A stretch of DNA of 53,205 bases from positions 1 through 53,205 of the IMG/VR virus record IMGVR_UViG_3300008261_000396; one strand, 5' to 3'. The position numbers and the translations under genes are program-made. Under the pieces are notes generated by a model. It made no database searches. It was not told the DNA's origin and worked only from the letters and a program-made list of their open reading frames with translations. Shown piece by piece: positions 527 through 51,893 of this stretch. Source of the DNA: a virus (Duplodnaviria > Caudoviricetes). Positions within the stretch are counted from its first letter, which is position 1. Each line of letters begins with the position of its first letter.

Positions 527-895
527 ATGAAAAAGATGCAAGTAGGTGGTATTAAAACTTATACTGGTACCAAAGGTAAAACTACAACAACAGGAAGTAG
601 TCCTAAAATTACTACTCATAAAGGAAAGAAAGGAAGTACAGAAGTTGTAAATTATTATAGTGATAATGGTAAAGCAGTTAGACATTCAGGTTCAAAAGGT
701 AAGACAGTAATTGATTCTTCAAAAAACTTTAAGGTAAAAGAACATGAAGGTTCTAAAGGAAAAACTCATGTTTTTGAAGATAAAACTGGTAAAACAGTTA
801 ATTACTTTTCAAAAAAGAAAGGTTTAAATTATTTTAAAAATACTGACTCAAAAGGAACTAGTACTTATAAAAAAGGTGGTACAACTAAAAAATAA
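527..895 (+). CDS. Small Lys-rich protein with (H/Y)xGxKGxT repeats
   Basis: 122-aa ORF; repeats YTGTKGKT, HKGKKGST, HSGSKGKT, HEGSKGKT; starts MKKMQVGG and ends YKKGGTTKK. Confidence 0.75.
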   Translation: MKKMQVGGIKTYTGTKGKTTTTGSSPKITTHKGKKGSTEVVNYYSDNGKAVRHSGSKGKTVIDSSKNFKVKEHEGSKGKTHVFEDKTGKTVNYFSKKKGLNYFKNTDSKGTSTYKKGGTTKK

Positions 896-36300: not shown

Positions 36301-38200
36301 TAAAGACAGTGTTCTTTATGAAAAGTATGCAGGAATATTTATAGAAGCTGCTCGGTTATCTCAAAAGAAACCAGCTGGTGACCCTGCTACAGAGAAACAA
36401 AAGCTGGATGATGAGTTAACAGATCTTGCAAAATATAAAAATGATGAGTTAAGAGTTGCAGCTCAGGATTATGACCAATCTTTTATTGATGAAGTTGGTA
36501 TGTCAGTACAAGAAGCAACTGCAAAAAACCAAGATGTTGAAGAATCAAATGCTCAATTAGAAATAGATCAAAAAGCTGCAACAGAAAAAATTGGTAAGCT
36601 TCAGAACTTATTAGAACTAGTAGGTAAAGATCCTATTGACTCAAATGAAATAGTAAAACTTTCTGATGAATTATTAAATAAAGGTGAGTTAGAGTTAAAT
36701 GCTGATGAGATAGATCCTGAAGCTATGGGTGCTATAACATCCCGTAAGTTTAAGAAAGCTGACCCGGATACTATAAATGAAGCAGTTTTTACAGTATATG
36801 TTTTATCTGAAAAATTCCCTACACTATTAGCTGATAAAATTGCTGAGCAAAAAGAAATACTTAAAAAACAAAAAGAGTCTTTGATTGATATTGAAGGTAC
36901 TAAAAGTTTTAAAGTAAATGCAGAAAGAGTAGCTCAAATAAATGAAAGATATACAGCTTTAGAAAATCAGATACTTAACAAGTATAAAGAAAAAGGTGTT
37001 GACAAATCTACTGTAGATGAGTTTACTCCACAAATGGGTTATGCTAATTTTCCAGAAGATTTGCAGTCTCAGATTGATACTGAATTCAATGCTTATTTGA
37101 CTAATGAACTTGAGATGGATCCAAAAAGTTTGATGGATACTAACATCAAAAAATATGAGGAGATTAGACAAAACTGGATTGAAAAAGAAGGTATAGAGTT
37201 ACTTAAAAAATATAATGAGCAAGTAAAAGCAGAGGGTGCAGCAAGAGCAGAAGCTTTGACCAAACCTCCTGTACTAACTTCTAGAATTTTTAAGAACATA
37301 AAAATTGAGGCTAGCATGCCTACAGGAACATTGAATGTTATCCTAGATAAAATGGAAGCAACATTGAAGAGTAAAATCTTTAATGATGGGGCTACTGAAT
37401 TTAAACTTTCAGAACAAGATATCAATGAAATCAATGAAGATGTTCAGAAACTTAAAACCTTCCTACAGTACAAACAAGGAAAGTTACAACCTGTAAGTGT
37501 AGCAGAAAAAGCATTTAATAGTTTTAGAAAAAATGTTCTAGCTAGACAAGATGAACTTGAGGATGTATTTGATGAAGATGGAAACAAGATAGGTAGAAAG
37601 TTTGCAGGAGATCCTGATTCAAAACTAACCACAAGAGCAACTAATATTTCTGACGGTATTGCTTCTGAATTATCTGATGAAACAAAACCAGGTTATTCAG
37701 ATGAGAATGTTGACAAAATAGTAAATGTGTTTTTTGGTGTGTATAATGATCATATTAAAAAAGGTGATCCAGATGCATTTAACAAAGCTTGGGAAGCATT
37801 TTCTATTGCAGCCAGAGATTCATATAAACAGTTGAACACAGAAGATAAAAAAGCTAGAATAAGAGCTTCTTTAGAAAAAAACACAACTGAAGAAAACTTT
37901 AGAAAGCTTATTGGTAAAGAGGCATTCTCAAATAACTCAGAAGCTGGTACTAATCTTGATGCTGCTGTAAGAACATTCTTTACTATAGATGATAATACTG
38001 GTACTTGGAAGTCTTTCAAATACAGTGACACTATTGAAATTGAAGGTAAAGAAACTAAGATTTCAGACATCATGAGTGAGACAGCTTTTGATAAAATGTT
38101 TGGAATTAGAGGTATTGTTACAAGATTTAGAGAAAGTTTAACTGCTCAAAATTATATACCATTAACAAACAATGTAAAACTGTTTGATAAAAACTTATGA
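33359..38200 (+). CDS. Large ejected cargo protein with Gly/Ala-rich membrane-like helices and coiled coils, ending in an apparently incomplete PD-(D/E)xK-like region
   Basis: 1613 aa, no Cys seen; AGILLEGAVEGAMVSGAIGAATGG, EGIQEISQ, FASGFLMGSLL; SEAGTNLDAAVRTFF near the end. Confidence 0.75.
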   Translation: MAKTIINSGSGLDLKNASVANKVININDATAGITPNKPAIATKSDNPVKDLNDHVQGVIQRQKMLQTTLRDDNEYGKTFTFDNSPSSASFKARYKGYGQETYNRIGFDPDVNNESIYNQNTTTFDDMGRWLKHSAAPMLGLGFLAPVHSYGKLLGSGDVGADRQEAKDYEYYNSIGYSSRGGIGGFATNLLNSVSYSAGILLEGAVEGAMVSGAIGAATGGELNLLGGALGGMKALTKVPSALFQSAKNIGKISKSLQALKNINNAKNFWKTAGTIGQKAGEFINPFENTLDAVKLLKETDDVSKLARTARTAGAFWHDVMGINMALSEGRLEGGFSEQNVYNKLYNDYYAKHGKAPSIELQQEMMLDSKKAGFKNTLYNTGLVFYSNKVAFPSITRAKFLKGAPRLNFGKVVGEVGNEFQIMFNPADDVAKATYTKEAISLKNSIKALKSPKQWGKLGLNYFKGNLMEGIQEISQEALASAVEKYYVDSFYNPSVRGYRYGMAAMFDGLDKQLNAQGGETFASGFLMGSLLEGPSKMFKFGTKNFSRIFKDKAVNEEYVKQREAQANAIVNSLNNMHKNAKYFFDPRINNYSNQMLTAKMVDNPDNVETKVLKDAEFAAFQSSVQTALRTGTYDTFLDNLKEYKNTTPEELEEAWSLEPGQGEKALQNIDKAITSAKETAARYKMAKDKFKDYVDPQQYKEGSPEYTAAIIYNKAYEESINSLVFLQSTFDNHIDRLGKMYNQLDKLKSISSSPFSNFDVITDAVKLNEQINYLKQDIESGETSTLPEAVAQVRQKRELLKALDRFQKAQDSNSGENLNLLLNAINEGNTTPEMNEYFNSFLNLLETIAGSEENKVTLRNEIDKLGGHEDLFSSLIDIHFLKHEQLNTAKYINILADPAGFRESVNRNFDWMKRMYDNRKEYYKDIVNQEITNVERNEILNTLAADGIFVDLDEFAKFVEDPENYLPEYFIDTTKEMIINKDSVLYEKYAGIFIEAARLSQKKPAGDPATEKQKLDDELTDLAKYKNDELRVAAQDYDQSFIDEVGMSVQEATAKNQDVEESNAQLEIDQKAATEKIGKLQNLLELVGKDPIDSNEIVKLSDELLNKGELELNADEIDPEAMGAITSRKFKKADPDTINEAVFTVYVLSEKFPTLLADKIAEQKEILKKQKESLIDIEGTKSFKVNAERVAQINERYTALENQILNKYKEKGVDKSTVDEFTPQMGYANFPEDLQSQIDTEFNAYLTNELEMDPKSLMDTNIKKYEEIRQNWIEKEGIELLKKYNEQVKAEGAARAEALTKPPVLTSRIFKNIKIEASMPTGTLNVILDKMEATLKSKIFNDGATEFKLSEQDINEINEDVQKLKTFLQYKQGKLQPVSVAEKAFNSFRKNVLARQDELEDVFDEDGNKIGRKFAGDPDSKLTTRATNISDGIASELSDETKPGYSDENVDKIVNVFFGVYNDHIKKGDPDAFNKAWEAFSIAARDSYKQLNTEDKKARIRASLEKNTTEENFRKLIGKEAFSNNSEAGTNLDAAVRTFFTIDDNTGTWKSFKYSDTIEIEGKETKISDIMSETAFDKMFGIRGIVTRFRESLTAQNYIPLTNNVKLFDKNL

Positions 38201-40566
38201 GAATTTCATTAAAAAATGCTACACCATTTGTTACTGATGTAACTGTTGGTGGAGAAAAAAATAGGGATACTGAGTTAGTACCATTAGTACCAAATACTGC
38301 TAAGTTATTTAATACACTTGAGCTTGAATACTTACCTGATGTGGAAGGTAAGGGTATCACTATGTCTGTACCTACTATTGAAAGTAGTACACCTTTAACC
38401 CCTACTACAGAAGATATAGAAGCTAAAAAAGCTGACATAGAAAGAAGAAGACAAGAAGAATTAGAAGGAGAAAAATATTTTGTAAAAACTAATGCAGAAG
38501 GACTCAAAGCTGCTAAAGAATTTGTTGATAAAATCAATGCTAAATATGATGCAGAACTAGCTGCTTTAGGTAAAACTACTATAGAAACAAGTAAATCACA
38601 AATAACCACTTCAGACACATCTAAATTAACACTTAATGATAATGTAGGTAAACAAGTAGTTTTCAATGGTAGAGTTGGAACACTGATTTTACAAGATGAT
38701 GGGTCATATGGAGTTGAAGTTGATTTAGGTTTTGAGCAATCTATGGGTGAAACTTTAATAACAGCATTAGAAGGTGATTTGGCTTCTGCTAGAGGGGAAT
38801 TTGGAGATCCTGAATTAGCTGAAGAAATTCAAAAACAAATTGATGATTTACAAAAGATTAAAAAAGGTAAAGAAATATATACAGTTACTTCTGAAGGAAA
38901 GCCTGCAACTAATGGTTCTTCTGAAATTACTAGTGTTGGTTTATCTTTGATTACTCCTGTAAAAAATGTTGGTCAAATTTCTGTAATTAACAACCAAGTT
39001 ATTGATGCAGCATTTGAAGATGAGAATGAAACAATAGCAATTGTAAATGGTGTAAGGTATACTGTATCAAGAGGTCCTTCTGGTGATATAAACCAACTGG
39101 TTTATTTTAAAAATGATAAGAGAAGAGAAGACATTGATAACATCATATTTGCTATCAATACTAAAATTGCAAAACTAAGACAAAACATTACTGGTGTATA
39201 TGCAGCAAAAGCTAATCTTCAACAAAGACTTAGTGAATTAGAGAAGCAAAATGCTCCAGCTTCACAAATTAAAAAAGTAAAACAAGATTTAGCTATCTTA
39301 TCTCCTCAATCAATATTGAGTAAAATCAATAAAGGTAAAGAAGAGATTGAAAGACTTACTGCAGAAAGAGACAGTTTATCTACAGATGACAAAGTATTTA
39401 TTTATGAAGGTAATGTTAATGATGTAATATTTGCTTTAAACAGATTACCAAATTCTTTTCAGAAAAATAGCTTGGGTACTAAACCTCAAGACATAGAAAA
39501 AGAACTTAAAAAAATACATAGTTTATCAGATGCTTCACCTAAAGTTCAGGAAGAGATTACCATGATAATGCAAAAGAATCTTCCTAAAGAACTAACTGAA
39601 GTAAGACTACAAGGTATATCAGCATTAGGTAGAGGAGCTAAAAAGTTAGAAGCACTTAGAAAGGGTATCCAAAAAACAATAGATGCATTAAAAGAATATG
39701 AAACTTTTAAAATGTATAGTAATGATCCTTTTGGAGTAGCTGCTACTAATAGACAAATTAATGTATTAAAAGATTTACTTGATCACTTAGTTTTAATTAA
39801 CTTAACAGAAACAAATAGAATTGCTAAAAAACAAGATTATGAACAAGACCTTAACAAAATCTTCGGAGCAGAAACCGGAGATGAATCAAACATTGGTGTA
39901 TCTGAGATTCAAAGCCCTACCGGAACAACAACAGAGGGAGTTTCTGGAATGGAGGAAGCAGGAGAAACAAAAGAAATCCCTTTTAATGAACTCCAAAAAA
40001 TAGTTAATTCTTCTATTGATGAGCTTGCTGAACTAACTCCTGAAGTAAATAAAGCAACAGAAGCCTTTGCAAAAATCAAAGATACTATTGAGTTATTTAA
40101 TAAGAAAAAAGAGTTAATAGCTAAGATGTCCAAGAATAAACTCAATTTAGCTCAAATAGAGTCTGCATATCAAAATAGATTAGCTGAGTTAGAGAATAAT
40201 GTTGATATCAATTCATTAAAAAAAGGTGATCTTTTACAAGATGTTACTAACTTTACAGAACAAGATTCTCCTGTACAAGTAGTGGATATTAAAGAAAATT
40301 CTGTTATATTAAAGTATGGAGATACAAAAAGAGAAGTAACTGAAGAGGAACTTCAAAATAATTTTGTTAAACCTTCAAAAGAAACGCAAATGACTCAGAC
40401 AGAAAAACCATCACAAGAAACTGTAGAAGCTTCAGAACAAACTAAAACTGATGCTAAAACATTCTTTGAAAATAAAGAAACTGAAGCTTCTGATTATAAA
40501 GAAGCAAAGGAATCAAATGAAGATGATTTATTCAAAAACTTAGAAGATAACTCAAAAACTTGTTAA
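38197..40566 (+). CDS. Coiled-coil cargo protein, or C-terminal part of the 33359 protein; ends in Cys
   Basis: 789 aa; ATGA overlap; DIEAKKADIERRRQEEL...INAKYDAELAAL module; its only Cys is the last residue. Confidence 0.7.
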   Translation: MRISLKNATPFVTDVTVGGEKNRDTELVPLVPNTAKLFNTLELEYLPDVEGKGITMSVPTIESSTPLTPTTEDIEAKKADIERRRQEELEGEKYFVKTNAEGLKAAKEFVDKINAKYDAELAALGKTTIETSKSQITTSDTSKLTLNDNVGKQVVFNGRVGTLILQDDGSYGVEVDLGFEQSMGETLITALEGDLASARGEFGDPELAEEIQKQIDDLQKIKKGKEIYTVTSEGKPATNGSSEITSVGLSLITPVKNVGQISVINNQVIDAAFEDENETIAIVNGVRYTVSRGPSGDINQLVYFKNDKRREDIDNIIFAINTKIAKLRQNITGVYAAKANLQQRLSELEKQNAPASQIKKVKQDLAILSPQSILSKINKGKEEIERLTAERDSLSTDDKVFIYEGNVNDVIFALNRLPNSFQKNSLGTKPQDIEKELKKIHSLSDASPKVQEEITMIMQKNLPKELTEVRLQGISALGRGAKKLEALRKGIQKTIDALKEYETFKMYSNDPFGVAATNRQINVLKDLLDHLVLINLTETNRIAKKQDYEQDLNKIFGAETGDESNIGVSEIQSPTGTTTEGVSGMEEAGETKEIPFNELQKIVNSSIDELAELTPEVNKATEAFAKIKDTIELFNKKKELIAKMSKNKLNLAQIESAYQNRLAELENNVDINSLKKGDLLQDVTNFTEQDSPVQVVDIKENSVILKYGDTKREVTEEELQNNFVKPSKETQMTQTEKPSQETVEASEQTKTDAKTFFENKETEASDYKEAKESNEDDLFKNLEDNSKTC

Positions 40567-40568
40567 TA

Positions 40569-43500
40569 ATGATATGTTCACTCAATGAAACTCAGCTTTC
40601 AGATTTAAGAAAAATAACATATAAAAAACTTTCTGGACTTAAACCTTCAGAAAGTTTTGATTTAAAGGTATATATAAAAGATATATACCAAAGAATTGAG
40701 AAAGCTGCTGGTGAAGAAAAAGCTTTACAATATGCTCAAATCATTCCTCTTACTATACATTTTGTGCAGGGTGATGATGAAATAAATAGCATATTAGCTA
40801 AAACTGATTTTAATCCTTCAGATATAATGAAGTTGAGAGCAGAATTTAATGACATTAAGAATGTTAAGAAATATGTTACTACACCAGTAAGAAAAAAATC
40901 TAAGAAAGAATTAAAGAGTGAGTTAGAACATGAAAACTTTCAATTAGATAATTTGGAGATTACAGATCCTGATTATTCTGTATTGGAAAAAATGGATAAA
41001 GCTAAAATTGAATATCCTAATGTTACAACATTTCAATTTGGTGAAGATAAAAATCCAGATGATCCAAATACACAAATTCAAGATGATGTTTTAGCTGAAG
41101 ATAAAAAAGTTTTTGACACAGTGATTAAAAAAATCATGAAGGCTCATAAAGAAAAAACTGTTGATCAAGACAATCCTGTTATTGGTGGTACAGAAGTTTT
41201 TTTAAAAATGATGTCTTCAGAAAGCTTTGAAAATAAGCACAAATTATCTAATCATAAAACTGTAACTGCTAAATCTTACAAAGGTGTTTTTGCTGTTGTT
41301 ACAGATATTGATGGTAATTACTTATACTTTGATGAAAATGGTAATTTAACTACTGAAGATAAAGGTACAGTTGTTTATCAGTTTATAAGAAAACCTTATT
41401 TGTTGGAAGATAAACTAAATAAAAAACAACATGCTTTGTTTATGATTTATCATAACCTTGGTAAAATGTATAAAAATACATTGGTTGCAGCAAGTAAAAT
41501 TGCAAAAAGAGTTGGTTTATCTAGTAAAGAAGTTTTAAAAAATCAAACAGAAAACATGAATGGTGTTTATAATATGCGTAAAGATATTATAGACAACAAC
41601 ACTTCATACATTACTCAAATTAATGGTGGTAGTTTTGGTATATTGAGTGCAAAAAATAAAAGAAAGATTAATGATCAATTACAAAAAACTGTAAAACTTA
41701 CAAGAGAAATTGTTAAAGATGCAAAAATTATATCAAGTACAGATTTAAGTGAAGGTTTTGCTCAATTCTTTGTTCAATATAATACTCCAATTTTTGGTGA
41801 AATAAGTATGCCTGTAAACATACAGAGGGGTAATTTTGATCAAGAACTTGCTAATAAAGTAGCTGATGTTATTACAACTAAAGCTACAAATAAAGGTAGA
41901 ACTTTGTCTGATGATGAAAGAATAGCTTACTTCAAAGTATTTTTAAATAATCAAAAAGTAAGTAAAAAAGGTGTTAAAAATAAAAATAACATTTTTTTAG
42001 ATAAAGTTGCTGGTGGACCACTTACTTTAACAATTAATGGTGAAAAGTTTGAAGGAGATGCTATCTTTACTACTGCTGTAAGAGACAAGATTGCACAGCA
42101 TTTACCAACAGCAATTAAGTTTGGTGACAAGGGTTCAATTGGAGCTAATGTAAATATTTCTAATAGCTATAAAGATAAGGGGACCTACACAGATTATGAA
42201 ATTTCTGGAGATAAGTTTAAACCTGTTGAAAAAGATTATATTGATGAAGTAGTATTGAAGTATGCAAAGCCACAATTTACTAATGAAGGTGGTTCAATGA
42301 TTTCAGGATTCAATCCTTATTTAAGTTATTCTATACCTAGTCAGTTTACAGAAGATGCGGATTCATTTTTTGATATTGCATTAGACTCAAAGACTGCAGC
42401 TCCAGTTAGGAAAAAAACTCAGGCTGAAAAGAATGAAACTGCTGAGAAAGTTGTAAAAGAAAAATCAAAAGCTGTTCAGAAAAAAAGAACTACTAAAGTA
42501 CCAGCAGCTACTGAGAATGTTGAAGTTATTATTGAGCACAATTGGTTTACACCATTTAAGAATGATTTGTCAGAAGAAGATGCTAACGGTTTTAATTTAG
42601 ATAGAAGTAAAGCTTTAGATAATTTTTTAGATAAGGTTTTCACTACTGAAGCTGACAAAGCAGCAGCAGAAACTTGGTGGGCTAACTCTCCTTTGAGTAA
42701 GTATATTAGCTTAAACAGAATAACTCAGATTGTAAACTCAAATGCATTTGCAACATTTACAGGAACTGGTATCACACTTTATGAAGGTGATGGTGGTACT
42801 GCTGTAGATTTATACCATGAAGCATGGCACGGATTCTCTCAGTTATTTCTAACAAGAGATGAAAAGATTAAGTTATACAATGAATTAAAGGGCCAACCAA
42901 AGTGGGCCAATAAATCATTCTTTGATATTGAAGAAGATATTGCAGAAGACTTTAGAGATTATGCAAGAAGCAGAGGTAAAAAAGAAGCACCTAAAGGATT
43001 TTTGGGTAAAGTATTTCAGAGAATTTACAACTTCCTACAGAACCTCATAGGCAGAGTAAGCAAACAAGACTTAGCTACAAGACCAAGAGACATTGAATCA
43101 GTAAAAGAATTGTTTGACAAATTGTACAGAGCTTCTGAGAATCCAGAGCTATTACAAGATATGCAACCTTCTACTGACAACATGATGTTTACTCAGTTGA
43201 ACAGAGCTAAAGCTATTACTTCTGTAAAAGATGTTGCTACTAAGTATGAACCATTTGATTCTGCTGAATCTTTGAAAGTTGTGAATTATTTGGACAGCTT
43301 AATTCCTGACATTTTTAATTCTGTAAACCAACAAAGAAATAGTTCTTCTGCACCAGTTAGAGTATTACAAACTAATGCAAATAGAAAACATTTATATAAG
43401 CTTTTAGAAAAGAAAATATCTGAAAGATTTAATCAATTAAGAGAAGACTTTGCAAAAACTGCAGCTGAGGGTGGTGATATTGATACATTGGAATTAAATC

Positions 43501-46500
43501 AACTTCCATTTTTAGGAAGAATGCTAGATAATTTTGGGAATGTTGATGCAACAATTGACGGTAAAGATCAGAAAGGTGTTATTGCTTTTCACATGCAAAA
43601 TTCTAGATTCAAAATTTTAGCAAATAAATTTGTTGAGTTAGAAGAAGATCCAACTGACATAAATAATTCTAGAATTGTTAGACTTGATGGTGGTAATATT
43701 TTCTCTTCAAGAGAAGCAGCTAGTCAAGAGACTAAAACTATTTTATCCAGTATTTACAAAGTAGACAGAAATAAAACAAAAGTTACTGTAAATGATGAGG
43801 GTAAACAAGTTTTATCTATTGAATATGAAGTAGACCCTCAAACAGGTTTATACATGCTCTTAGATGAAAGAGAAATGTGGAGTAAAGTTGCTAAAGTATT
43901 AGCAGGTTCTTTTGTAAACATTACCAAAACAGCTGATGATGTATTAGCAGAAGCAAGAGTACAAAGAACAGATTTTGATAGAACTAAAGTTTTAAAAGAT
44001 TGGGAAATAAATTTTCTTACTGTTGCTGACTCTAAATTTATTGTTGAAAATAAATCAGGGCAAAGAGTATTAGATTTAGACAAGTTTGTAAAACATTTTA
44101 AGAATAACATAAATTCTAAAAATGTTCTTGAGTTCTTAAATGCATTAGGTATTGTGATGGATACATCAAATCCTACAATTGCTAGTGTTGTAGCTGATCC
44201 TAACTTTGTAAATAAGTTTGCAATTGGGCACATCTTTGATTCTTTAGAGCATATAAATAAAATGTATGATCCTGAAAAATTTACTTTTTTAAGAAACCCT
44301 CTTGCATATTTAAAAACAAGTTTGCCTAAGACATTAGATCCTGGTCAAAAATTTGATTCTTCTTCAAGAATAAAAGAACTTGCAAATATACAAGTAAGAT
44401 TTTCAGATAAGTATTCTAACTTTAGTGCAGTTAGTCCTGAAGGAAATAGAGTATGGGAGCATTTCTTGGATAATACTTTTACAAGAATTATGACTTCTTT
44501 AAATCATACAAAATCTTGGCAAGAACTTACAAATCCTGATGCTGATCCAAATGGTTTGTTCAGACATATGCGTTACTTAGCATATGACAACAATACTTAC
44601 ACAAGACATTCTGTATTACTAAAATCATTATTTAATGATTTGTTGGCTGTAAATAATCCTGGTGGTAAAAAAGATAACACATTGGTAATTCAAAATGTGG
44701 CGGGAACACAGTTAATTGACACTAAAACTAATAATCAACAAGGTGTTTCTACAGCATCAATGGATGCTACAAGTAAATACTTGCAAGAGATCCATACTAT
44801 GTTGATGAGTGGTGTAGAAGAGTTCATGAGACATGCTTCTAAACAAATGTCACAAGGTATTGTATTAAAAAATGGTCTTAAAACTTATGATAATAAAAAT
44901 GCTAAAAACTTATATGTTGATATAGAGAAGTTTTTACCAACTACAAACTCTGGTGAAGACTATGCATTTGATATTTTATCTGGATACTTGACTGGTGAAG
45001 TAAATAGAATTTTTAGATTTAGTTCTGATTTAGAAAAATATTCTCAATTTACAGGTTATACAAGAACTGTAAATAGAAAAACAGGAGAAGTTGTAATGGC
45101 TGGACAAGCTCTTACTGCTTTTGAAGATGTATTATCTAAAGATACTCAAGCAAAAATATATGCTATAGTAGATAAAGCTGTTGCTGATAAACAATCTGAT
45201 TTTGATTTCTCAGATATATATGATGACAACGCTAAGCTAACAGAAGAGATAAGAAAAGATGTTGCTAAGTATTTTAACAGTATAACAACTGAGTTGAAAC
45301 AAAGACTTGATAAAACAAAGTTTATTGATCCTGCTTTAAGAGGTAGAGTTGAAAACAAAGGTGTTGAACTTACAGTAGATGAATCTGATACAACACTGAT
45401 GAAAGCATATGCTTACAACTCTTGGATTCACAAGTTTGAAACTGCTATTCTTGGTTATGGAGACTTAGCACAATACAATCATGCTAAAGAAGAATTCCAT
45501 AAAAGAAATGCTGGTTTTGGTTCTGGTGGTTTAGGCTTTGCTTCTGATTTAAAGTCAAGAAGTTTTGTAAATAAAATGCCTAAGTTATTTAATAAAATAG
45601 CACCAAGTAAACCATTTGATGGTACTTTAACTACAGCAATCATAAAAGAAAGAGTTATAGAAAAGTCTGTGTATTATGATGAGTACTATGATGCTCTTGT
45701 AAAAGACTATACAAAAAGATTTGGTGATAAAACTAAGGCAAAAGAATTAGCAAAAACTGCTTTAAAAGAATATAATAATATGAAGATTGGTGATGGTCAA
45801 GGCCACATTAGTTTTGAATCATATAGAATACTTAAAAATCTTGAAGGTAACTGGTTACCAGAACAAGAAGAGTTGTATAAAAAGTTAGCTAATGGTGAAG
45901 AAGTATCTGTAGAAGATGTTGTACATTATTTTCCTCCATATAAATTACAGTATTGTGGAGCTATGGAAACTACAGGCTTACCTGTTACTTCATTCCATAA
46001 ATTCTCACTTGCTCCAATTATACCAGGAGTAGCTAAAAAAGGTACACCACTATATGATTTGCACCAAAAAATGATGCTTAATGATGTAGACTATGTTGTA
46101 TTTGAAACAGGTTCTAAAGTTGGACATTTAGGAACTGGTGATGAAATATATGATGAAAATGGTAATATTCTTATGGATGAACCATTTACAAAAAATGTAA
46201 TCTTCACAGAGTTCTTAAAGAATCAAACAGAAGTTAACTCTGAGTATAAAGGTAAATCTATTTTTTCTACTCAGATGAGAAAGTTAGTTTTAGATAACTT
46301 GTATGAAAATGGTGTAATCAATTCTCCTGATGAGAAAGATGTAGTATCACCATTAGTAAAAAGATATCTTGATAATGTATCAGATTATACTGAGTTAGTT
46401 AAATTAGAATTATTAGAAGAAATTGGTTTTGATGAAACTTCTGACGGTGAATACAAAGCAAGAGACAAAGAAAGTATAGGTAAATTATTATCACTTGTTA

Positions 46501-49500
46501 GAAATAACTTAGATAGAGAAGAATCTTACAGTGATGAAATGCTCAACTTTATTGATGCTCTTGATAGTGGTGAGTTATTACATGATTTATCATTACACCC
46601 AGAAGCATTAAAAATTGAGAAGCTTTTATTATCTCTGATTAACAAAAGAGTTATCAAACAAAAAGTAAAAGGAGAACCACTTGTACAAGTATCTTCTGCT
46701 TTTTATGAAAATAACCTTACAGAGTCTCCTAATTTTAGAAATGCAACTGATGCAGATAAGAAAAAATGGGTAGGTAGTAACTTACTTCCTACTTATCATA
46801 AGAAGGCGAATGGTAAAACTGCAGCAATGAAGGTTATGATTGCATTACAGGGGGACTATGTTAACTTGTTGAATCTTGAATATAAAGGGGCAACTATTGG
46901 AGATATTGATACATTAAACAAAGCAATCAAAGATGATAAATGGTTAGATGCAAATGATAGTGCTAACAGAAAAGCAATAACTCTTGTAGGGGTTAGGATT
47001 CCAGTTCAGGGTCTAAACTCTATGGAGTTTATGGAAGTTTATGAGTTCTTACCTCCACAAGCAGGTAATATAATCATTCCTCCAGCTGAGATAGTTGCTA
47101 AGTCAGGGGGTGACTTTGATATTGATAAACTTACAATCTTTATGACCAACATAGACATAGATGGTAAGCTTAAAGAAAGAACCTATAAAAATACTGCGGA
47201 GCTAAAAGCTTCTCTACAGAACATCAAAGATAATGAGGATGAATCCATAACTAAAGCTTTCAAACAACAAAAAGCAGGAGTAGAGAATGACTTGATGAAT
47301 GATATCAAAGAAATACTTGAGCTTCCACAAAACTTTGTTTCTCTTATTACACCAAATGGTACTTTCTTATTGAAAGATATTGCTGACAAACTAGCTGCAG
47401 ATGTGATGGAATATGATCCATTCAAAAATTACATGACTGATACAACAACAGAACCTGAAAAAGGTAAGAAAATTATCAGTGCAACAAGAGTATTAGAACC
47501 TCTTTATAACTTATATAAACATGAATCTAATATTGTTGGTAAGAAAACATTAGGTTTAGGTGCTATAGAAAATACAATGAATGTATTGTTAAACTCTATT
47601 GGAGCCCTTATGCCAGAAACATATACCAATGCTTATTCAAAAGTAACAAGAACCACTAATATAGGTTTAAGACATAATGTAAGGAAAGTTGATGGTACGG
47701 ATAGAATATCCCTATCTAACTTATATGATGTTAACAATGTGAATAAAATAGCTGATGTATTCTCACAAGCAATGAACGGCTGGGTGGATGTTGAAAAAGA
47801 TGCATGGATTTTCTTTATCCAAGGTAACTATGAGGTAGCACCTATATTATTATATTTAATTAAAGCTGGTGTTCCTGTTAAAGAAGCTATTTACTTTGTA
47901 TCACAACCATTAGTAAGAGAATATGTAGATGAACAGCGTCTTGCTAAATCTACATTTGCTTCTGTATTAGGAAAAGCTCCAGAAGAAAAGACATTTGTGA
48001 AGTATCAATCAGCTTCTAATATCATTAATAAATATTTCAATCCTTCTGTATTACCAGCTAAAGGTGAAGCATATGTTAGATTTGAAACAGGACGTAAGTT
48101 ATTTGATAAATTAATGAAGGATAGAAAAGATAAACATTTTACAGAAAAAGAAATGTTACAGTTAATACAAGATTCTAAAAAGAATAATAATTTTAAATCT
48201 TCTGACTTATCATTAACTATGTTCTTACACTACTTGGATATTGAAGACCAGATTAAGGGTATTACACAGGTTAAAATGAACTCTAATCCAGATACTAATA
48301 CTAAGTCAGTATTATCTGATATTGAGACATCAGAAGCAAGATTAGAAAACTTAGAAAATAATCCTGAGTTACAACCAATAATATCTGCTTTGATGAGCAA
48401 CTCAGTTATTAGCTCATTCTTTAATAACAAACTAGCATTGTCTTTAGCTGCACCATTGTTTAAATTAAGATACAATGATGCAATCCGTAGATTTATTAAA
48501 TCTGAAGATGATTCCAATACTTTAAGCAAAAATATAAAATCTACATTTGGTGAAAGTGGTAGAGATAATTATTTGAATACTTTCAAAAATGATTTAGTAA
48601 GTTACATTTTTCAAAATAGATTGGTTAAAACAGACATTAAAAAAGGTTACATATCTTATGATGCAAAAGAATTACCAAGTAAACAGATGCTTTCTGATAA
48701 ATTTGGAGCTTTTGTAAAAACAAATAAAGATGGTAGCAAAACTTTGTTTTATAATCTTAAAAATTTAGAAAAAGAATATACATCAGGTGTATGGAAAGAA
48801 GATGCAGAGAAACCAAACCATTATTCACAGTTAGGATTACATCCTGTTCCAGCAAATACATTTACAATTGCTAAAGGAAACAACACACAAGCTTATGCTA
48901 GATTTGTAATGGAAAGAGAGTATTTAAGATCTATTTATCCAATTGCAGAAACAGGTTTAGAAAAAACAGCTTATGAAGAGTTTCTAGCAAACAGAGCACT
49001 TGATAATACTTTTAATGTTAATCATTTATTTAGTGATCCAAAAAATGCTTTTGCTGTAAGATTATATGACATAATCTTGACTAACCCTAAGCTTGTAAAT
49101 AAATTTGATGTGTTATCAAAACTAGAGCTTGATAATAATACTCAAAATACTATGTTCAATCTTAACTTGATTGACCGTGATATTGACAACATCAAAGCAA
49201 ATATTTACACTAAAAATTTAACAGACTTAGCAGATCCTGTTTTGTTAAAAGCATTAGCTAATGAATTAAGTTTGAGTGACCAAGATATAGAAAACATTTC
49301 TTACTTATTCTCTAGACTTCCTTTGTTTGCATACTTGCAATCAGGTATCAATAAAACTAAATCTAACTTAGTTCCTTATGTAAGTACAGAATCATTCTTA
49401 AACATTATGGATGATGCTGTCAAAGACTTTACTGAACTTCTTTCTAATCCGGATAAAGCTGAAAGAGTATTAAGAGATTTTTATGACAAGTTTAATGCTC

Positions 49501-51893
49501 AGAATAGTTATAAAAATAAAGACAAAAACAGATTTAAGAACTATTTTACTGATATTGACTTTAATAAAGTAGGTACTGGAGGAGCTATACAAGTAAAAAA
49601 AGGAACTGTTGAAAAAACAAATAATATTATTTTAAGAAGTAATTTAAAGGCAAATCCTGCAAGTTTGTATTTATTTGGGGATAATGATGTAAGAAAAGGT
49701 TTAGGAGGTCAAGCAAAAGAAATGCGTGGTGAACCAAATGCTATTGGTATATCTACTAAAAAATTACCAGCAAGAGGTGAAGAAGCATATAAATCAGATG
49801 CTGAACTAGAAGAAAACAAAAAAATCATTACTGAAGATATAAACAAAGCAATTGCTGAATGGAATACAGGAAAGTATAACAAACTTATTATTCCACAAAT
49901 GGGTGTTGGTTTAGCTGAGTTACCTACAAGGGCTCCAGAAACATATAAGTTTTTACAACAAGAACTTAAAAGATTAGAAAATCATGTTGCTCAACCAGCT
50001 ACTAGTGTTAATGAATTAACTGAAGAAGATGTTAAATGGTTGCGTGCTAATAGAAAACTAATTGAAACAACATATAAGAGTAGTAATCTTTTTGGAGCTA
50101 GAGACACTGAATTAAAAACTCCTTTATTCTTTGATAATAATAAAACTAAAGTTATTCGTATTGATCCTGATCCAGCTGATACTTCTAGAATTATATTTGA
50201 AAAAGATTCTAAAACATGGATGGTTAAACTAGAAGAAAAAGATAATAAAGTAAGTCCACGTTTATATGAATGGAAAGATGTTTATGGTAAAGGAGAATTT
50301 TCATTTTATGCAACTGATGGTTCTACTAAGAGTGATTTAGAAAACATAAATAAAAGTGGATTAATGAATTTAATTAATCAGCTTTATGAAGATACAAATA
50401 TTCCTGATCCAGGAGATAAACAACTTATAGTATCAAATGCTCTTCAACAAAAATATGGCTTAAAAAGAACTTATAAAGATATAATTAATGAGTTAAATCC
50501 TACTATTCAACCAACTACTGAAGCTGTAGATGTTAAAGTAATTTCAAAAGATTATGGTGTTGTTGTAGCTGAGACTAAACCAAACAATACAAAAACTAAA
50601 GAGTTTGTAAAAATTATACAATCACAAATTAAAGCACAAGCATACCAAGAAAATAAAACAGGTAATAAAATGTTCATGTATGGTCTTAGATGGACTAGAA
50701 AAGCAAAAGCAATTAAACCAATAGTTAACAAAAGTTATGCAAATGGTGGTTTACCAACAACAGATGCTAAAGCAACTGATGGATATGTATATGATACTTT
50801 GGACCAAAATGGTAAACCATTAGCACCTTTATCAGATCTACAACCTATAATTAATGAGATTCAAAACGCATTAGGTATTGATATGTCTAACTATGATGCT
50901 GTAATTGGTAACATTTATTTACCCGGACAAAGAATTCAGACACATAGAGATACTACTGAAAGTTTAAGTGCTAGAAATTATCCTGTTGTAGTGTATACAA
51001 TAGGTGCAGGTAATGCTATTAATATTTATGAAAATTTAAAAAATCCGGGTTCGGCTAGTTTTGCAAGTGATAAAAAAATATCTATACCTACAGAAAACGG
51101 AACTATCTATACATTTGGTATGGATGGTAAAGGAAGATTTGAATTAGGTCACGATACACCACATGCAGTTCAAAAAGGAGATACTCAAGAACCAATTACT
51201 ATGCCTGATGGTACAGTAATTAAAGATTATACAATTACTCTTACATTCAGAAGAGCTGCTGATTTAGAACAAGGTATGCCTACAGCTCCTGCTAAAACTA
51301 AAGTAATATCATCAGCTATTGAAGCTGTAGAAGAACAAACTAATGATCTTATTACTACACCAGATCCTAACATCTTTTTGTATGATGATTCAAAAGATGA
51401 CAGTGCTGCTTTCTACAAAAAATTAACCAGTACTAATTCTACAGTAGGTTTTGTTTATAATGCAACCAAGTTTGAAATAGATAATAATAAAGATCTTCCT
51501 GGACAAGGTTATTTAAGATTAGTATCCAAAGATACTGCCTTACCTTTTGTTACAAGTTTGACTAGTAATTTTGATAACTTTAGTAACTTAGCACCTGAGA
51601 ATTATCAAATTGTGAAAAACTATTTTGATAGAAAAATTCAGGAGCTTAAAAATGCTAAAGACTTAGGTAACAAAATAGCACTTCCTAAAGCAGGAATAGG
51701 TGATGCTAAGAAAATGCCTCAAGAATTATTTGTATATTTAAGTAAGAGGTTATTTGAAGAGTTAGGTTATTTAAATCCTGGTTCTTCAGCTTACAAAGAC
51801 ATAACTGAAGTAATAAGTAATAAACAAGGTATATCAGATGATGAAATTCTTGCATCACTAGGTTTTGAATCTGATCCTTTTAACTGTGTATAA
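40569..51893 (+). CDS. Virion RNA polymerase (phi14:2 gp66-like, double-psi beta-barrel) with an N-proximal zincin-like domain and C-terminal macro-like, AlkB-like and degenerate macro-like domains
   Basis: HEAWH 42816 plus EEDIAE; DGQGHIS 45792; RIPVQG 46995; catalytic DFDIDK 47112; WVDVEKD near 47781. ATG 40569 preferred over TTG 40560, which overlaps the upstream gene. Confidence 0.92.
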   Translation: MICSLNETQLSDLRKITYKKLSGLKPSESFDLKVYIKDIYQRIEKAAGEEKALQYAQIIPLTIHFVQGDDEINSILAKTDFNPSDIMKLRAEFNDIKNVKKYVTTPVRKKSKKELKSELEHENFQLDNLEITDPDYSVLEKMDKAKIEYPNVTTFQFGEDKNPDDPNTQIQDDVLAEDKKVFDTVIKKIMKAHKEKTVDQDNPVIGGTEVFLKMMSSESFENKHKLSNHKTVTAKSYKGVFAVVTDIDGNYLYFDENGNLTTEDKGTVVYQFIRKPYLLEDKLNKKQHALFMIYHNLGKMYKNTLVAASKIAKRVGLSSKEVLKNQTENMNGVYNMRKDIIDNNTSYITQINGGSFGILSAKNKRKINDQLQKTVKLTREIVKDAKIISSTDLSEGFAQFFVQYNTPIFGEISMPVNIQRGNFDQELANKVADVITTKATNKGRTLSDDERIAYFKVFLNNQKVSKKGVKNKNNIFLDKVAGGPLTLTINGEKFEGDAIFTTAVRDKIAQHLPTAIKFGDKGSIGANVNISNSYKDKGTYTDYEISGDKFKPVEKDYIDEVVLKYAKPQFTNEGGSMISGFNPYLSYSIPSQFTEDADSFFDIALDSKTAAPVRKKTQAEKNETAEKVVKEKSKAVQKKRTTKVPAATENVEVIIEHNWFTPFKNDLSEEDANGFNLDRSKALDNFLDKVFTTEADKAAAETWWANSPLSKYISLNRITQIVNSNAFATFTGTGITLYEGDGGTAVDLYHEAWHGFSQLFLTRDEKIKLYNELKGQPKWANKSFFDIEEDIAEDFRDYARSRGKKEAPKGFLGKVFQRIYNFLQNLIGRVSKQDLATRPRDIESVKELFDKLYRASENPELLQDMQPSTDNMMFTQLNRAKAITSVKDVATKYEPFDSAESLKVVNYLDSLIPDIFNSVNQQRNSSSAPVRVLQTNANRKHLYKLLEKKISERFNQLREDFAKTAAEGGDIDTLELNQLPFLGRMLDNFGNVDATIDGKDQKGVIAFHMQNSRFKILANKFVELEEDPTDINNSRIVRLDGGNIFSSREAASQETKTILSSIYKVDRNKTKVTVNDEGKQVLSIEYEVDPQTGLYMLLDEREMWSKVAKVLAGSFVNITKTADDVLAEARVQRTDFDRTKVLKDWEINFLTVADSKFIVENKSGQRVLDLDKFVKHFKNNINSKNVLEFLNALGIVMDTSNPTIASVVADPNFVNKFAIGHIFDSLEHINKMYDPEKFTFLRNPLAYLKTSLPKTLDPGQKFDSSSRIKELANIQVRFSDKYSNFSAVSPEGNRVWEHFLDNTFTRIMTSLNHTKSWQELTNPDADPNGLFRHMRYLAYDNNTYTRHSVLLKSLFNDLLAVNNPGGKKDNTLVIQNVAGTQLIDTKTNNQQGVSTASMDATSKYLQEIHTMLMSGVEEFMRHASKQMSQGIVLKNGLKTYDNKNAKNLYVDIEKFLPTTNSGEDYAFDILSGYLTGEVNRIFRFSSDLEKYSQFTGYTRTVNRKTGEVVMAGQALTAFEDVLSKDTQAKIYAIVDKAVADKQSDFDFSDIYDDNAKLTEEIRKDVAKYFNSITTELKQRLDKTKFIDPALRGRVENKGVELTVDESDTTLMKAYAYNSWIHKFETAILGYGDLAQYNHAKEEFHKRNAGFGSGGLGFASDLKSRSFVNKMPKLFNKIAPSKPFDGTLTTAIIKERVIEKSVYYDEYYDALVKDYTKRFGDKTKAKELAKTALKEYNNMKIGDGQGHISFESYRILKNLEGNWLPEQEELYKKLANGEEVSVEDVVHYFPPYKLQYCGAMETTGLPVTSFHKFSLAPIIPGVAKKGTPLYDLHQKMMLNDVDYVVFETGSKVGHLGTGDEIYDENGNILMDEPFTKNVIFTEFLKNQTEVNSEYKGKSIFSTQMRKLVLDNLYENGVINSPDEKDVVSPLVKRYLDNVSDYTELVKLELLEEIGFDETSDGEYKARDKESIGKLLSLVRNNLDREESYSDEMLNFIDALDSGELLHDLSLHPEALKIEKLLLSLINKRVIKQKVKGEPLVQVSSAFYENNLTESPNFRNATDADKKKWVGSNLLPTYHKKANGKTAAMKVMIALQGDYVNLLNLEYKGATIGDIDTLNKAIKDDKWLDANDSANRKAITLVGVRIPVQGLNSMEFMEVYEFLPPQAGNIIIPPAEIVAKSGGDFDIDKLTIFMTNIDIDGKLKERTYKNTAELKASLQNIKDNEDESITKAFKQQKAGVENDLMNDIKEILELPQNFVSLITPNGTFLLKDIADKLAADVMEYDPFKNYMTDTTTEPEKGKKIISATRVLEPLYNLYKHESNIVGKKTLGLGAIENTMNVLLNSIGALMPETYTNAYSKVTRTTNIGLRHNVRKVDGTDRISLSNLYDVNNVNKIADVFSQAMNGWVDVEKDAWIFFIQGNYEVAPILLYLIKAGVPVKEAIYFVSQPLVREYVDEQRLAKSTFASVLGKAPEEKTFVKYQSASNIINKYFNPSVLPAKGEAYVRFETGRKLFDKLMKDRKDKHFTEKEMLQLIQDSKKNNNFKSSDLSLTMFLHYLDIEDQIKGITQVKMNSNPDTNTKSVLSDIETSEARLENLENNPELQPIISALMSNSVISSFFNNKLALSLAAPLFKLRYNDAIRRFIKSEDDSNTLSKNIKSTFGESGRDNYLNTFKNDLVSYIFQNRLVKTDIKKGYISYDAKELPSKQMLSDKFGAFVKTNKDGSKTLFYNLKNLEKEYTSGVWKEDAEKPNHYSQLGLHPVPANTFTIAKGNNTQAYARFVMEREYLRSIYPIAETGLEKTAYEEFLANRALDNTFNVNHLFSDPKNAFAVRLYDIILTNPKLVNKFDVLSKLELDNNTQNTMFNLNLIDRDIDNIKANIYTKNLTDLADPVLLKALANELSLSDQDIENISYLFSRLPLFAYLQSGINKTKSNLVPYVSTESFLNIMDDAVKDFTELLSNPDKAERVLRDFYDKFNAQNSYKNKDKNRFKNYFTDIDFNKVGTGGAIQVKKGTVEKTNNIILRSNLKANPASLYLFGDNDVRKGLGGQAKEMRGEPNAIGISTKKLPARGEEAYKSDAELEENKKIITEDINKAIAEWNTGKYNKLIIPQMGVGLAELPTRAPETYKFLQQELKRLENHVAQPATSVNELTEEDVKWLRANRKLIETTYKSSNLFGARDTELKTPLFFDNNKTKVIRIDPDPADTSRIIFEKDSKTWMVKLEEKDNKVSPRLYEWKDVYGKGEFSFYATDGSTKSDLENINKSGLMNLINQLYEDTNIPDPGDKQLIVSNALQQKYGLKRTYKDIINELNPTIQPTTEAVDVKVISKDYGVVVAETKPNNTKTKEFVKIIQSQIKAQAYQENKTGNKMFMYGLRWTRKAKAIKPIVNKSYANGGLPTTDAKATDGYVYDTLDQNGKPLAPLSDLQPIINEIQNALGIDMSNYDAVIGNIYLPGQRIQTHRDTTESLSARNYPVVVYTIGAGNAINIYENLKNPGSASFASDKKISIPTENGTIYTFGMDGKGRFELGHDTPHAVQKGDTQEPITMPDGTVIKDYTITLTFRRAADLEQGMPTAPAKTKVISSAIEAVEEQTNDLITTPDPNIFLYDDSKDDSAAFYKKLTSTNSTVGFVYNATKFEIDNNKDLPGQGYLRLVSKDTALPFVTSLTSNFDNFSNLAPENYQIVKNYFDRKIQELKNAKDLGNKIALPKAGIGDAKKMPQELFVYLSKRLFEELGYLNPGSSAYKDITEVISNKQGISDDEILASLGFESDPFNCV

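Follow-up and report, generated by a model that had tools for sequence, protein, structure and literature searches.

AlkB-like and DUF7831 domains in the C-terminal tail of a giant crAss-like RNA polymerase

The viral record IMGVR_UViG_3300008261_000396 (Duplodnaviria; Caudoviricetes) is a whole linear record of 53,205 bases, which we analysed at its full length and call the window. It is estimated to be 44% complete, has a GC content of ~31% and carries nearly all of its long open reading frames (ORFs) on the + strand. One of these genes encodes a giant crAss-like RNA polymerase protein whose C-terminal tail is the subject of this work. The tail contains a DUF7831 domain (segment a), a stretch that we could not assign, an AlkB-like Fe(II)/2-oxoglutarate (2OG) dioxygenase module (segment b) and a degenerate DUF7831-like domain at the very end (segment c). 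All three segments lie C-terminal to the catalytic motif of the polymerase, in the same open frame and within its last fifth (Table 1). The original prediction, made from the sequence without database searches, had described a polymerase core followed by three domains; every string that it quoted is found in place, in a single open frame, and each of the three segments is a real conserved unit, far beyond chance.

Table 1 Features of the giant polymerase gene and its tail; strings are given with the number of their first residue.
Feature	Position (nt)	Residues (aa)	Strand	Basis or remark
Giant crAss-like RNA polymerase gene	40569..51893		+	ORF listed from TTG 40560 (40560..51893, 3777 aa)
HEAWH (HExxH), zincin-like motif	42816..42830	753-757	+	H, E, W, H invariant in 14/14 aligned relatives
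GGDFDIDKL, DFDxD catalytic motif of two-barrel RNA polymerase	47106..47132	2183	+	D, F, D, D invariant in 14 relatives
Segment a, DUF7831 domain	49620..49961	3021-3134	+	Pfam E 1.4e-35
LYLFGDN (segment a)	49665-49685	3036
GISTKK (segment a)	49746-49763	3063
LIIPQMGVGLAEL (segment a)	49884-49922	3109
Unassigned stretch between a and b	49995..50516	3146-3319 (~175 aa)	+	No family match
Segment b, AlkB-like Fe(II)/2OG dioxygenase module	50517..51329	3320-3590	+	AF2 and Foldseek, invariant residues
YDAVIGNIY (segment b)	50892-50918	3445
HRD (segment b)	50943-50951	3462
VVVYTIG (segment b)		3476
ELGH (segment b)	51141-51152	3528
ITLTFRR (segment b)	51234-51254	3559
Segment c, degenerate DUF7831-like terminal domain and conserved C-terminal tail	51327..51890	3590-3777 (core 3618-3731)	+	hhalign
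FVTSLT (segment c)		3663
IALPKAGIG (segment c)	51675-51701	3706
MPQELFVYL (segment c)	51714-51740	3719

The fourth codon of the 3777-aa frame is an ATG at 40569. Because relatives align from this codon (the close relative P0123 from aa 4), it is the likely start. The TTG start overlaps the 3' end of the upstream 789-aa ORF (38197..40566).

The DFDID motif itself occupies aa 2185-2189. The central 1000 residues, used in tblastn, hit 110 phage records among those deposited; most of these are crAss-like and two are from Cellulophaga phages. Identity is 21-28% among the matches listed, and the annotations of the genes behind them vary between putative RNA polymerase, DprA-like, helicase and DUF1768 proteins. 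Built from 14 full-length relatives, a profile has a single match in the PDB, 6vr4_A, the DNA-dependent RNA polymerase gp66 of phage phi14:2 (E 2e-24). By these sequence criteria the window protein is a crAss-like virion-type RNA polymerase, as originally proposed. Like gp66, it is a single-chain two-barrel polymerase with a DFDxD motif and its family profile matches 6vr4, but the gp66 chain has 2194 aa against 3777 aa here. The additions in the window protein are ~800 aa ahead of the motif and, at the other end, the tail of ~760 aa with its DUF7831, AlkB and DUF7831-like domains. P0123, one of the 14 relatives in the profile, is 76% identical to the window protein over aa 4-3041 and 72% over aa 3582-3777. 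Its core thus joins segment c directly, and the window protein therefore has an insert of ~540 aa, made of segment a, the unassigned stretch and segment b. According to published work, the crAss-like polymerase forms part of the virion and is translocated with the DNA (PMC7886860); the abstract of a preprint likewise reports packaging and injection of the polymerase in homologs (bioRxiv 10.1101/2020.03.07.982082).

We are nearly certain that segment b has the AlkB fold. Its AlphaFold2 (AF2) model, with a predicted local distance difference test (pLDDT) of 84.5 and a predicted TM-score (pTM) of 0.88, gives 171 PDB matches at E ≤ 1e-3 in Foldseek. The top 16 are all E. coli AlkB, the best being 3khb_B (E 2.5e-10, TMt 0.72, with TMt up to 0.74 among AlkB entries); ABH2, ALKBH6, ALKBH5, OsALKBH1 and ALKBH3 come next. 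Since Foldseek places E. coli AlkB first, the earlier assignment of segment b to AlkB-like dioxygenases holds, with the fold predicted and the metal triad intact. When segment b alone is searched against PDB sequences, E. coli AlkB chains again come out on top, at E 0.5, aligning over GY-Y...D-Q..KP...N-Y-PG...H-D; the lid-like N-terminal part (GY-Y-...-D-Q...KP) is thus included in the likeness. A profile of segment b relatives places OsALKBH1 (5xeg) second at E 0.0043. The best match of that profile is an RCC1-repeat protein (E 0.0041), which we read as an artefact of its G-x-x-Y-x-F-G repeat. The PADLOC models give a weak 2OG match (E 0.032). One relative (L022) scores 31.8 bits against the Pfam family 2OG-FeII_Oxy_2 (PF13532), which is already listed for many homologs of segment b. 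The unit conserved in IMG/VR relatives spans aa ~3315-3585. At ~270 aa, segment b has ~50 extra N-terminal residues and is fused here to a polymerase.

The likeness to E. coli AlkB and to human ABH2 and ALKBH3 extends to some of the active-site residues. An alignment of 15 relatives, down to 40% identity, keeps N-I-Y, H-x-D, the distal H and T-x-T-F-R-R invariant; the key residues of the window are N3451-x-Y3453, H3462-x-D3464, H3531 and T3558-x-T3560-x-T-F-R3564-R3565. Residues R204 and R210 of E. coli AlkB contact 2OG. The hidden Markov model (HMM) alignment to OsALKBH1 5xeg pairs YtitltFR with grlnltFR, so that T3558 takes the place of R204 and T3560 that of N206, while R3564 stands at the R210 position with an additional invariant R3565 directly after it. 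A Thr is also found at the position of D135. The remark in the original prediction that the first 2OG-binding Arg is substituted is thus borne out. The R204-equivalent residue is Thr in 13 of the 15 fused relatives and Arg in the two most distant ones (L022 and L024).

Standalone homologs of 261-286 aa (P0224-P0249, P0258, P0260 and P0261), on contigs of up to 368 kb, share 38-49% identity with segment b and cover 93-96% of it. The search returned 57 matches overall, two of them named AlkB by their source. All 26 standalone homologs that were aligned possess every key residue of segment b, including both Thr and the Arg-Arg pair (TxTxTFRR instead of RxNxTFR). As the Thr is kept in 26/26 of them, segment b appears to represent a conserved, distinct AlkB-like subclade and not a decaying copy. 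Either R3565 or the invariant R3526 is a candidate for holding the C5 carboxylate of 2OG. No match to segment b was found by tblastn in deposited phage genomes at E ≤ 0.1.

Segment b is probably active. It would remove alkyl lesions of the 1-methyladenine/3-methylcytosine (1mA/3mC) type by oxidation, a lesion class suggested because its best structural matches are 1mA/3mC repair enzymes. The targets would be the single-stranded template DNA or the nascent RNA handled by the polymerase, a substrate class that we find possible, slightly short of an even chance. Alternatively, the module could reset methyl marks and not repair damage, acting on host protective adenine methylation or on phage epigenetic marks. 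Such a role has been argued for the sporadic AlkB-like enzymes of phages, in a jumbo-phage study according to which a few jumbo phages have such proteins (PMC7824862). The AlkB module is indeed sporadic, being found in none of 14 giant polymerases surveyed (0/14), and the changes in its pocket for 2OG and substrate (T3558, T3560 and the Thr at D135) suggest a non-canonical substrate. However, AlkB and ABH2, both 1mA/3mC repair enzymes, are the best structural matches whereas the N6-methyladenosine demethylase ALKBH5 ranks lower, and Pfam shows no methyltransferase partner in the window tail. We consider mark resetting very unlikely and retain lesion repair as the preferred function of segment b.

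Segment a belongs to the Pfam family DUF7831 (PF25176), scoring 122.1 bits against a cut-off of 27; the genome search gave identical coordinates. Among PHROGs it matches phrog_2072, of 'unknown function'. At E ≤ 1e-5 we found 370 homologs among proteins of 72-231 aa; all of the 120 listed carry PF25176 and none of these 120 has an informative name. At least one DUF7831 relative occurs in 95 deposited phage records, mostly from Caulobacter, Rhizobium, Brevundimonas and roseobacter phages, where it is annotated as 'hypothetical protein'. No paper under the name DUF7831 was found in the literature searched. An alignment of 53 sequences (A1) has 17 invariant columns, reading F-G-D-N, G..G-G-Q-A.E.R...N..G...K..P, then G and P. 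Segment a has all 17 of them; its family-invariant residues include F3039, G3040, D3041, N3042, G3049, G3050, Q3051, A3052, E3054, R3056, N3060, K3067 and G3115.

The AF2 model of segment a, computed on A1, is confident (pLDDT 95.4, pTM 0.88) and shows, in order, a strand, a helix, a strand, a short helix, a strand, a long helix, a strand and two helices, with four strands in total. According to the alignment and the model, the invariant residues map to the ends of strands 2, 3 and 4 and to the loops that follow each of them. In a parallel α/β sheet this edge would be the usual ligand-binding one. DUF7831 would probably be an enzyme, its small α/β sheet of four strands holding a polar pocket at the C-terminal edge. 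We give an even chance to its being an enzyme for a nucleotide-type ligand or for an adduct on nucleic acid.

Segment a had been taken for a DarG/TARG1-like macrodomain, and segment c for a second one. In that reading both would be hydrolases that take ADP-ribose off DNA bases or acidic residues and, together with the AlkB module, erase DarT-type and alkyl marks. The resemblance to DarG/TARG1 macrodomains is genuine and concerns short motifs only: in segment a, a strand leads into a Gly-rich loop (N-x6-GG), the Lys of a T-K (K3067) is invariant, and a P-x-x-G-x-G-L loop is followed by a helix. K3067 and the Gly-rich loops (G-x-GGQA and G-x-G-L) would correspond to TARG1 residues by this resemblance and not through an alignment. 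Other signals in this direction come from the A1 profile, which has four matches among PDB sequences at E ≤ 10: three are VTA1, and the fourth, the only enzyme, is the macrodomain of DarG (5m31), with an E of 0.92 and in an alignment that covers only the G-x-G loop and the following helix. Pfam Macro matches 2/53 A1 members at E ≤ 10, with a best E of 0.077, and unrelated families match equally weakly. In two Atlas feature searches, clusters with 10-11% Macro score 0.80, below the lead threshold of 0.9; the best named neighbour, 'A1S_2505 family phage non-structural protein', also stays below it (0.87-0.88). Finally NADAR, a de-ADP-ribosylase family, is present in relatives of the window polymerase.

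None of the comparisons of fold, profile, Pfam and PADLOC supports membership, and all of the positive signals are at noise level. A macro fold is a three-layer α/β/α arrangement with a mixed sheet of 6-7 strands, but the segment a model, at ~115 aa, has only four. Despite its high pLDDT, the model gives 386 PDB matches at E ≤ 10 in Foldseek and none at E ≤ 1e-3, and no macrodomain is found among the 49 PDB matches listed. Dual-specificity phosphatases come first, at E 0.1-0.4 and a TM-score of ~0.3. BFVD holds many viral macrodomains. Against it, segment a has nine matches at E ≤ 1e-3, all to DUF7831-labelled proteins or to segments of giant crAss-like proteins (from Hyperionvirus, Tupanvirus, Yasminevirus, Caulobacter and Rhizobium phages, the crAss-like cr130_1, cr272_1 and cr131_1, and one UniParc entry), and no macrodomain is among the 50 BFVD matches listed. 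Structure prediction of the tail segments has therefore brought out the AlkB fold expected of segment b and not the macro fold expected of segment a.

Sequence searches agree. Segment a itself has no match at E ≤ 10 to Pfam Macro (PF01661), in PADLOC, which we take to include DarTG models, or, as a single sequence, in the PDB. For profile comparisons we used a MacroD-type profile of 30 bacterial Macro matches and a cpYpsA SLOG profile of 17 sequences, both shallow and without secondary structure. DUF7831 against the former gives 0.6% in hhalign, a background value, the profile being MacroD-type and not specific for TARG1/DarG; unrelated controls give 0.6% (Macro against cpYpsA) and 0.3% (DUF7831 against the AlkB alignment). 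Membership of DUF7831 in SLOG was rejected on an equally low value (0.2% with these shallow profiles). DUF4326, which shows a similar fusion pattern in the jumbo-phage study (PMC7824862), was likewise dismissed, as no DUF7831 member matches it at E ≤ 10; it is absent from all 41 genomes sampled (0/41). The motif resemblance of segment a is real, and yet neither its sequence nor its model supports family membership. We judge it improbable that segments a and c are DarG/TARG1-type macrodomains with the erasing activity described, and just as improbable that segment a is a very derived mini-macro.

Segment c is, by sequence, a remote homolog and diverged copy of segment a, as first noticed, without being a DUF7831 member at the Pfam level. 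BLASTP relates the two at E 0.005 over 55 residues, and the DUF7831 HMM built from A1 directly matches the terminal domains of some relatives (P0181 at 8e-13, P0170 at 1e-7, P0174 at 1.5e-5 and P0165 at 7e-5). The alignment of the segment c family (49 sequences) matches that of DUF7831 in hhalign at 97.4% (E 9e-12, 108 columns), and still at 94.1% (E 1.3e-7) after removal of the seven bridging members that match the HMM; the AlkB alignment, as a negative control, gives 0.1%. Its reading as a second macrodomain is not supported: hhalign gives 0.6% against Macro, and the Lys as well as both Gly-rich motifs are lost. Against cpYpsA, hhalign gives 0.1%. In aligned columns, N-A-T stands for G-D-N, P-G-Q-G for G-G-Q-A, a gap for Glu, K for Asn and S for Lys. 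What survives is, for the most part, a single Gly-Gln, the Arg and the A-G-I-G loop. With the FGDN, GGQA and TK residues gone, catalysis is unlikely and segment c is probably non-catalytic.

A HMMER search of the full library with segment c gave 63 representative clusters at E ≤ 1e-3; for 49 of these, E is ≤ 1e-10. In proteins of at least 3000 aa, 20/20 of these matches end within 10 residues of the C-terminus. The tail that follows the core is conserved as well: L-S..L, N-P, Q and a penultimate Cys are invariant in 14 giants. From its fixed terminal position and this conserved tail, segment c may serve in binding, anchoring or packaging. Segment c alone has only chance matches in the PDB (tau and Fab chains), none by tblastn in deposited phage genomes at E ≤ 0.1, and one in PADLOC (JetC, E 0.016) that we also read as chance; NCBIfam yields only sub-threshold matches on the four tail segments. 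For the unassigned stretch of aa 3146-3319, scans of Pfam, PHROG, NCBIfam and PADLOC gave nothing above noise. Its conservation in relatives is limited to the last ~60 residues, and it is absent where segment a abuts segment c (P0124 and P0127); it could be a linker, or else a small domain that has escaped recognition.

The tails of related polymerases, a survey that had been suggested earlier, differ widely in their content. Besides the direct junction of a and c in P0124 and P0127, segment a is followed by AlkB after a shorter gap in P0194 and AlkB is followed by segment a in P0199. We examined 24 loci of IMG/VR relatives and scanned six of them with Pfam. Segment b is found in 19 of the 24, a close segment c in five and a weak one in two more; segment a is within reach in none (0/24). 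Of the scanned tails, one carries cpYpsA SLOG and AlkB (L001), one an AAA_33/Zeta-type P-loop kinase and segment c (L002), two AlkB alone (L004 and L022), one a weak NADAR, AlkB and a superfamily 1 (SF1) helicase (L013), and one AlkB and NADAR (E 4e-11; L014). The polymerase protein of the primate-gut crAss-like phage cr130_1 (L026 1-14880) has 5801 aa, with 56 in-frame TAG and no other in-frame stop in the sequence covered, a pattern consistent with recoding of TAG to a sense codon. Its tail has a SLOG-like G-G-A-Y-G-A-D motif, then NADAR (E 4e-7), then DUF7831 (E 1.7e-6). UniProt already labels the cr131_1 protein as 'DUF7831 domain-containing', so that this fusion is present in databases.

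Since the tails of relatives vary in both domain content and order, the tail is a shuffled cassette array. Its recognisable members are, as far as their families tell, domains that act on nucleic acids or on NAD/ADP-ribose-type ligands. One could instead suppose that the tail is mainly structural, for packaging, capsid anchoring or ejection, its enzyme-like domains being relics. This would fit with segment c, degenerate yet always terminal, with the substitution of R204, and with the lack of recognisable enzymes in most giants that end in segment c. Yet the 17 invariant columns of segment a are common to 52 free-standing homologs, and the metal triad and 2OG contacts of segment b are invariant in 15/15 fused and 26/26 standalone homologs. 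Such invariance of active-site residues in both segments implies purifying selection on active sites, and we hold a purely structural tail with relic enzymes to be highly improbable. We return to the cassette array in the light of where else DUF7831 is found.

In longer proteins, DUF7831 is fused to 2OG-FeII_Oxy_2 (two cases), helicase domains (two), an RNase H-like/DNA polymerase B exonuclease (one) and RNA_pol_Rpb6 (two). The Rpb6 fusions form two metagenomic clusters (P0213 and P0214, 293 and 335 aa), each with an N-terminal Rpb6, an acidic Ser-rich linker and a fully conserved C-terminal DUF7831; this style of fusion resembles a giant-virus gene. Prokaryote genomes contain DUF7831 at 25 loci in Alphaproteobacteria and Acidobacteriota. 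In 14/14 of the large Acidobacteriota proteins (L031, L037-L047, L049 and L050), of up to ~2030 aa and some of them cut by a contig end, DUF7831 stands at the beginning and is followed by DUF488-N3a, and in 2/14 a YpsA SLOG precedes it. In the one neighbourhood that was scanned (L031), a gene for an 832-aa MobL/MobA-type relaxase lies directly upstream. By their sequences, these proteins look like delivered polyvalent proteins of conjugative elements. The standalone DUF7831 genes of three phages lie in different surroundings: one two genes away from a CCA-adding enzyme and near a calcineurin-like phosphoesterase, one among replication and repair genes, and one after rIIA/rIIB, ~3.5 kb from a T4 30.3-like (NADAR-type) gene.

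Alternatively, DUF7831 might serve RNA processing linked to transcription; it could act, for instance, on the 5' ends, the NAD caps or the 2'/3' phosphate ends of nascent RNA, with AlkB cleaning RNA and not DNA, so that the tail would serve the quality of early transcripts and not counter-defence. DUF7831 is tethered to two unrelated kinds of RNA polymerase, the crAss-like two-barrel enzyme and, in two clusters with a giant-virus-like acidic linker, Rpb6; it occurs in Mimiviridae-type viruses and, as a standalone copy, close to the CCA-adding enzyme. In plant RNA viruses, AlkB domains repair RNA. However, exonuclease domains of DNA polymerase B and helicase domains are among the fusion partners of DUF7831 as well, it occurs in relaxase-linked conjugative-type proteins without any polymerase, and no RNA-end-processing family was matched at any threshold in Pfam and NCBIfam scans. 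On balance we regard a role confined to transcript processing as unlikely, and continue with an array not limited to RNA.

Altogether, we favour, with some but not strong confidence, the view that the last ~760 residues are a lineage-variable accessory array on the polymerase core, made of an intact DUF7831, the ~175-aa stretch, a complete AlkB subclade enzyme and a degenerate DUF7831-like end. The array would enter the cell with the genome as cargo of the polymerase; its delivery is suggested by homologous polymerases, which the virion contains and which are translocated along with the DNA. There, the AlkB module would clear alkyl lesions, DUF7831 would act through its predicted pocket, and the terminal copy, presumably non-catalytic, would bind, anchor or take part in packaging. 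A link of DUF7831 to NAD/ADP-ribose chemistry, drawn from its NADAR, SLOG and AlkB neighbours only, is tentative and in our view doubtful. The original prediction had proposed that erasers of nucleic-acid modifications arrive with the polymerase. The array and the NADAR domains of relatives favour this part of it, the macrodomain route does not stand, and NADAR is found in relatives and not in the window. An injected repair or counter-defence array appears plausible, by way of AlkB, NADAR and DUF7831 rather than macrodomains.

Several observations weigh against this interpretation. The window protein alone (aa 1001-3000) has no PDB match at E ≤ 0.01; because the single sequence finds nothing there, its link to gp66 comes from the family profile and tblastn. 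Against PF13532, segment b (aa 3401-3539, E 3.4e-6) scores 27.9 bits, below the gathering score of 31.2, and NCBIfam AlkB models match it weakly (E 0.002-0.004, best 0.0018). With Thr as the R204 equivalent, the use of 2OG as co-substrate may be changed or lost. The PDB offers no structural neighbour for DUF7831, its ADP-ribose connection comes through domain neighbours only, and the three phages with standalone genes show mixed contexts. Finally, of the 14 full-length giants that end in segment c, five have DUF7831 (Pfam), one AAA_33 and none AlkB or NADAR at E ≤ 1e-3; as most of them lack the tail enzymes, these are dispensable for the polymerase family.

Phages with a comparable equipment have been described. 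According to a preprint, phage NADAR proteins reverse DarT1 ADP-ribosylation on phage DNA (bioRxiv 10.1101/2024.07.11.602962). The anti-DarT factor AdfN (T4 gp30.3) would share with the array the proposed role of a phage-borne eraser of DNA ADP-ribosylation, as far as its description there goes, and NADAR domains with weak Phage_30_3 matches are present in the tails of L014 and cr130_1. Unlike AdfN, the window has no NADAR match in Pfam and DUF7831 is unrelated to it in sequence; since both occur in cr130_1, DUF7831 is not simply a substitute for NADAR.

Iyer et al. 2017 (PMC5512222) described polyvalent proteins of phages and conjugative elements; Iyer et al. 2022 (PMC9503650) described NAD/ADP-ribose enzymes packaged in virions, with Macro, NADAR and Nudix among them. 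As these texts present them, such proteins resemble the window polymerase in being giant, multidomain and delivered with DNA, with shuffled enzyme modules; the invariant HExxH of the window and the NADAR and SLOG domains of its relatives add to the likeness. AlkB, NADAR, YpsA and DUF488 are absent from the main text of PMC5512222, and crAss and AlkB from the text of PMC9503650; the supplementary domain tables of both, and of PMC7886860, might list such fusions. Yutin et al. 2021 do not mention NADAR, DUF1768, oxygenase, macro or ADP-ribos in their main text. A search pairing crAss-like with AlkB returned one unrelated review only, and neither crAss with NADAR nor DUF488-N3 by itself led to anything useful. 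An array on a crAss-like polymerase that combines AlkB and DUF7831 was not found in the main texts of the literature searched, nor was an AlkB-type dioxygenase carried by an injected RNA polymerase.

Outside the tail, the HEAWH motif was assigned as a motif only, its region having no Pfam peptidase match; it suggests that the giant protein may be self-processing. The cr130_1 protein has a similar YHEAFH. Other very large ORFs in the window lie at 14327-19735, 33359-38200, 38197-40566 and 51896-53203, mostly without a PHROG match. Among these, only the 1802-aa ORF matches a virion structural family (phrog_37948, E 6e-45). The two ORFs immediately upstream of the polymerase gene, of 1613 aa and 789 aa, and the open-ended one downstream of it have no PHROG at E ≤ 1e-5.

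Virion-delivered multidomain proteins with counter-defence enzymes are already an established idea. The new element here is an enzyme of an AlkB subclade on a virion-type polymerase, accompanied by a well-defined unknown, DUF7831, and the analysis corrects a tempting but unsupported macrodomain label. DUF7831 is a suitable experimental target: it is small, confidently modelled, without a PDB neighbour, and marked by 17 invariant columns in A1. Phages, giant viruses and conjugative elements are the settings in which it recurs, beside NADAR, SLOG, AlkB, helicases and RNA polymerase subunits. As a speculation, rather unlikely as it stands, DUF7831 might be a new class of enzymes removing a bulky nucleotide-derived adduct (ADP-ribose or related) from DNA or RNA. 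Its attachment to RNA polymerases would have come about independently in crAss-like phages and, via Rpb6, in giant-virus-like genomes, and conjugative elements would have recruited it into proteins that they deliver. Joined with the TxTxTFRR AlkB subclade, it would make up a unit on the polymerase that cleans template or transcript at the start of infection. If segment b is active, direct-reversal repair would sit on the very enzyme that first reads the incoming genome.

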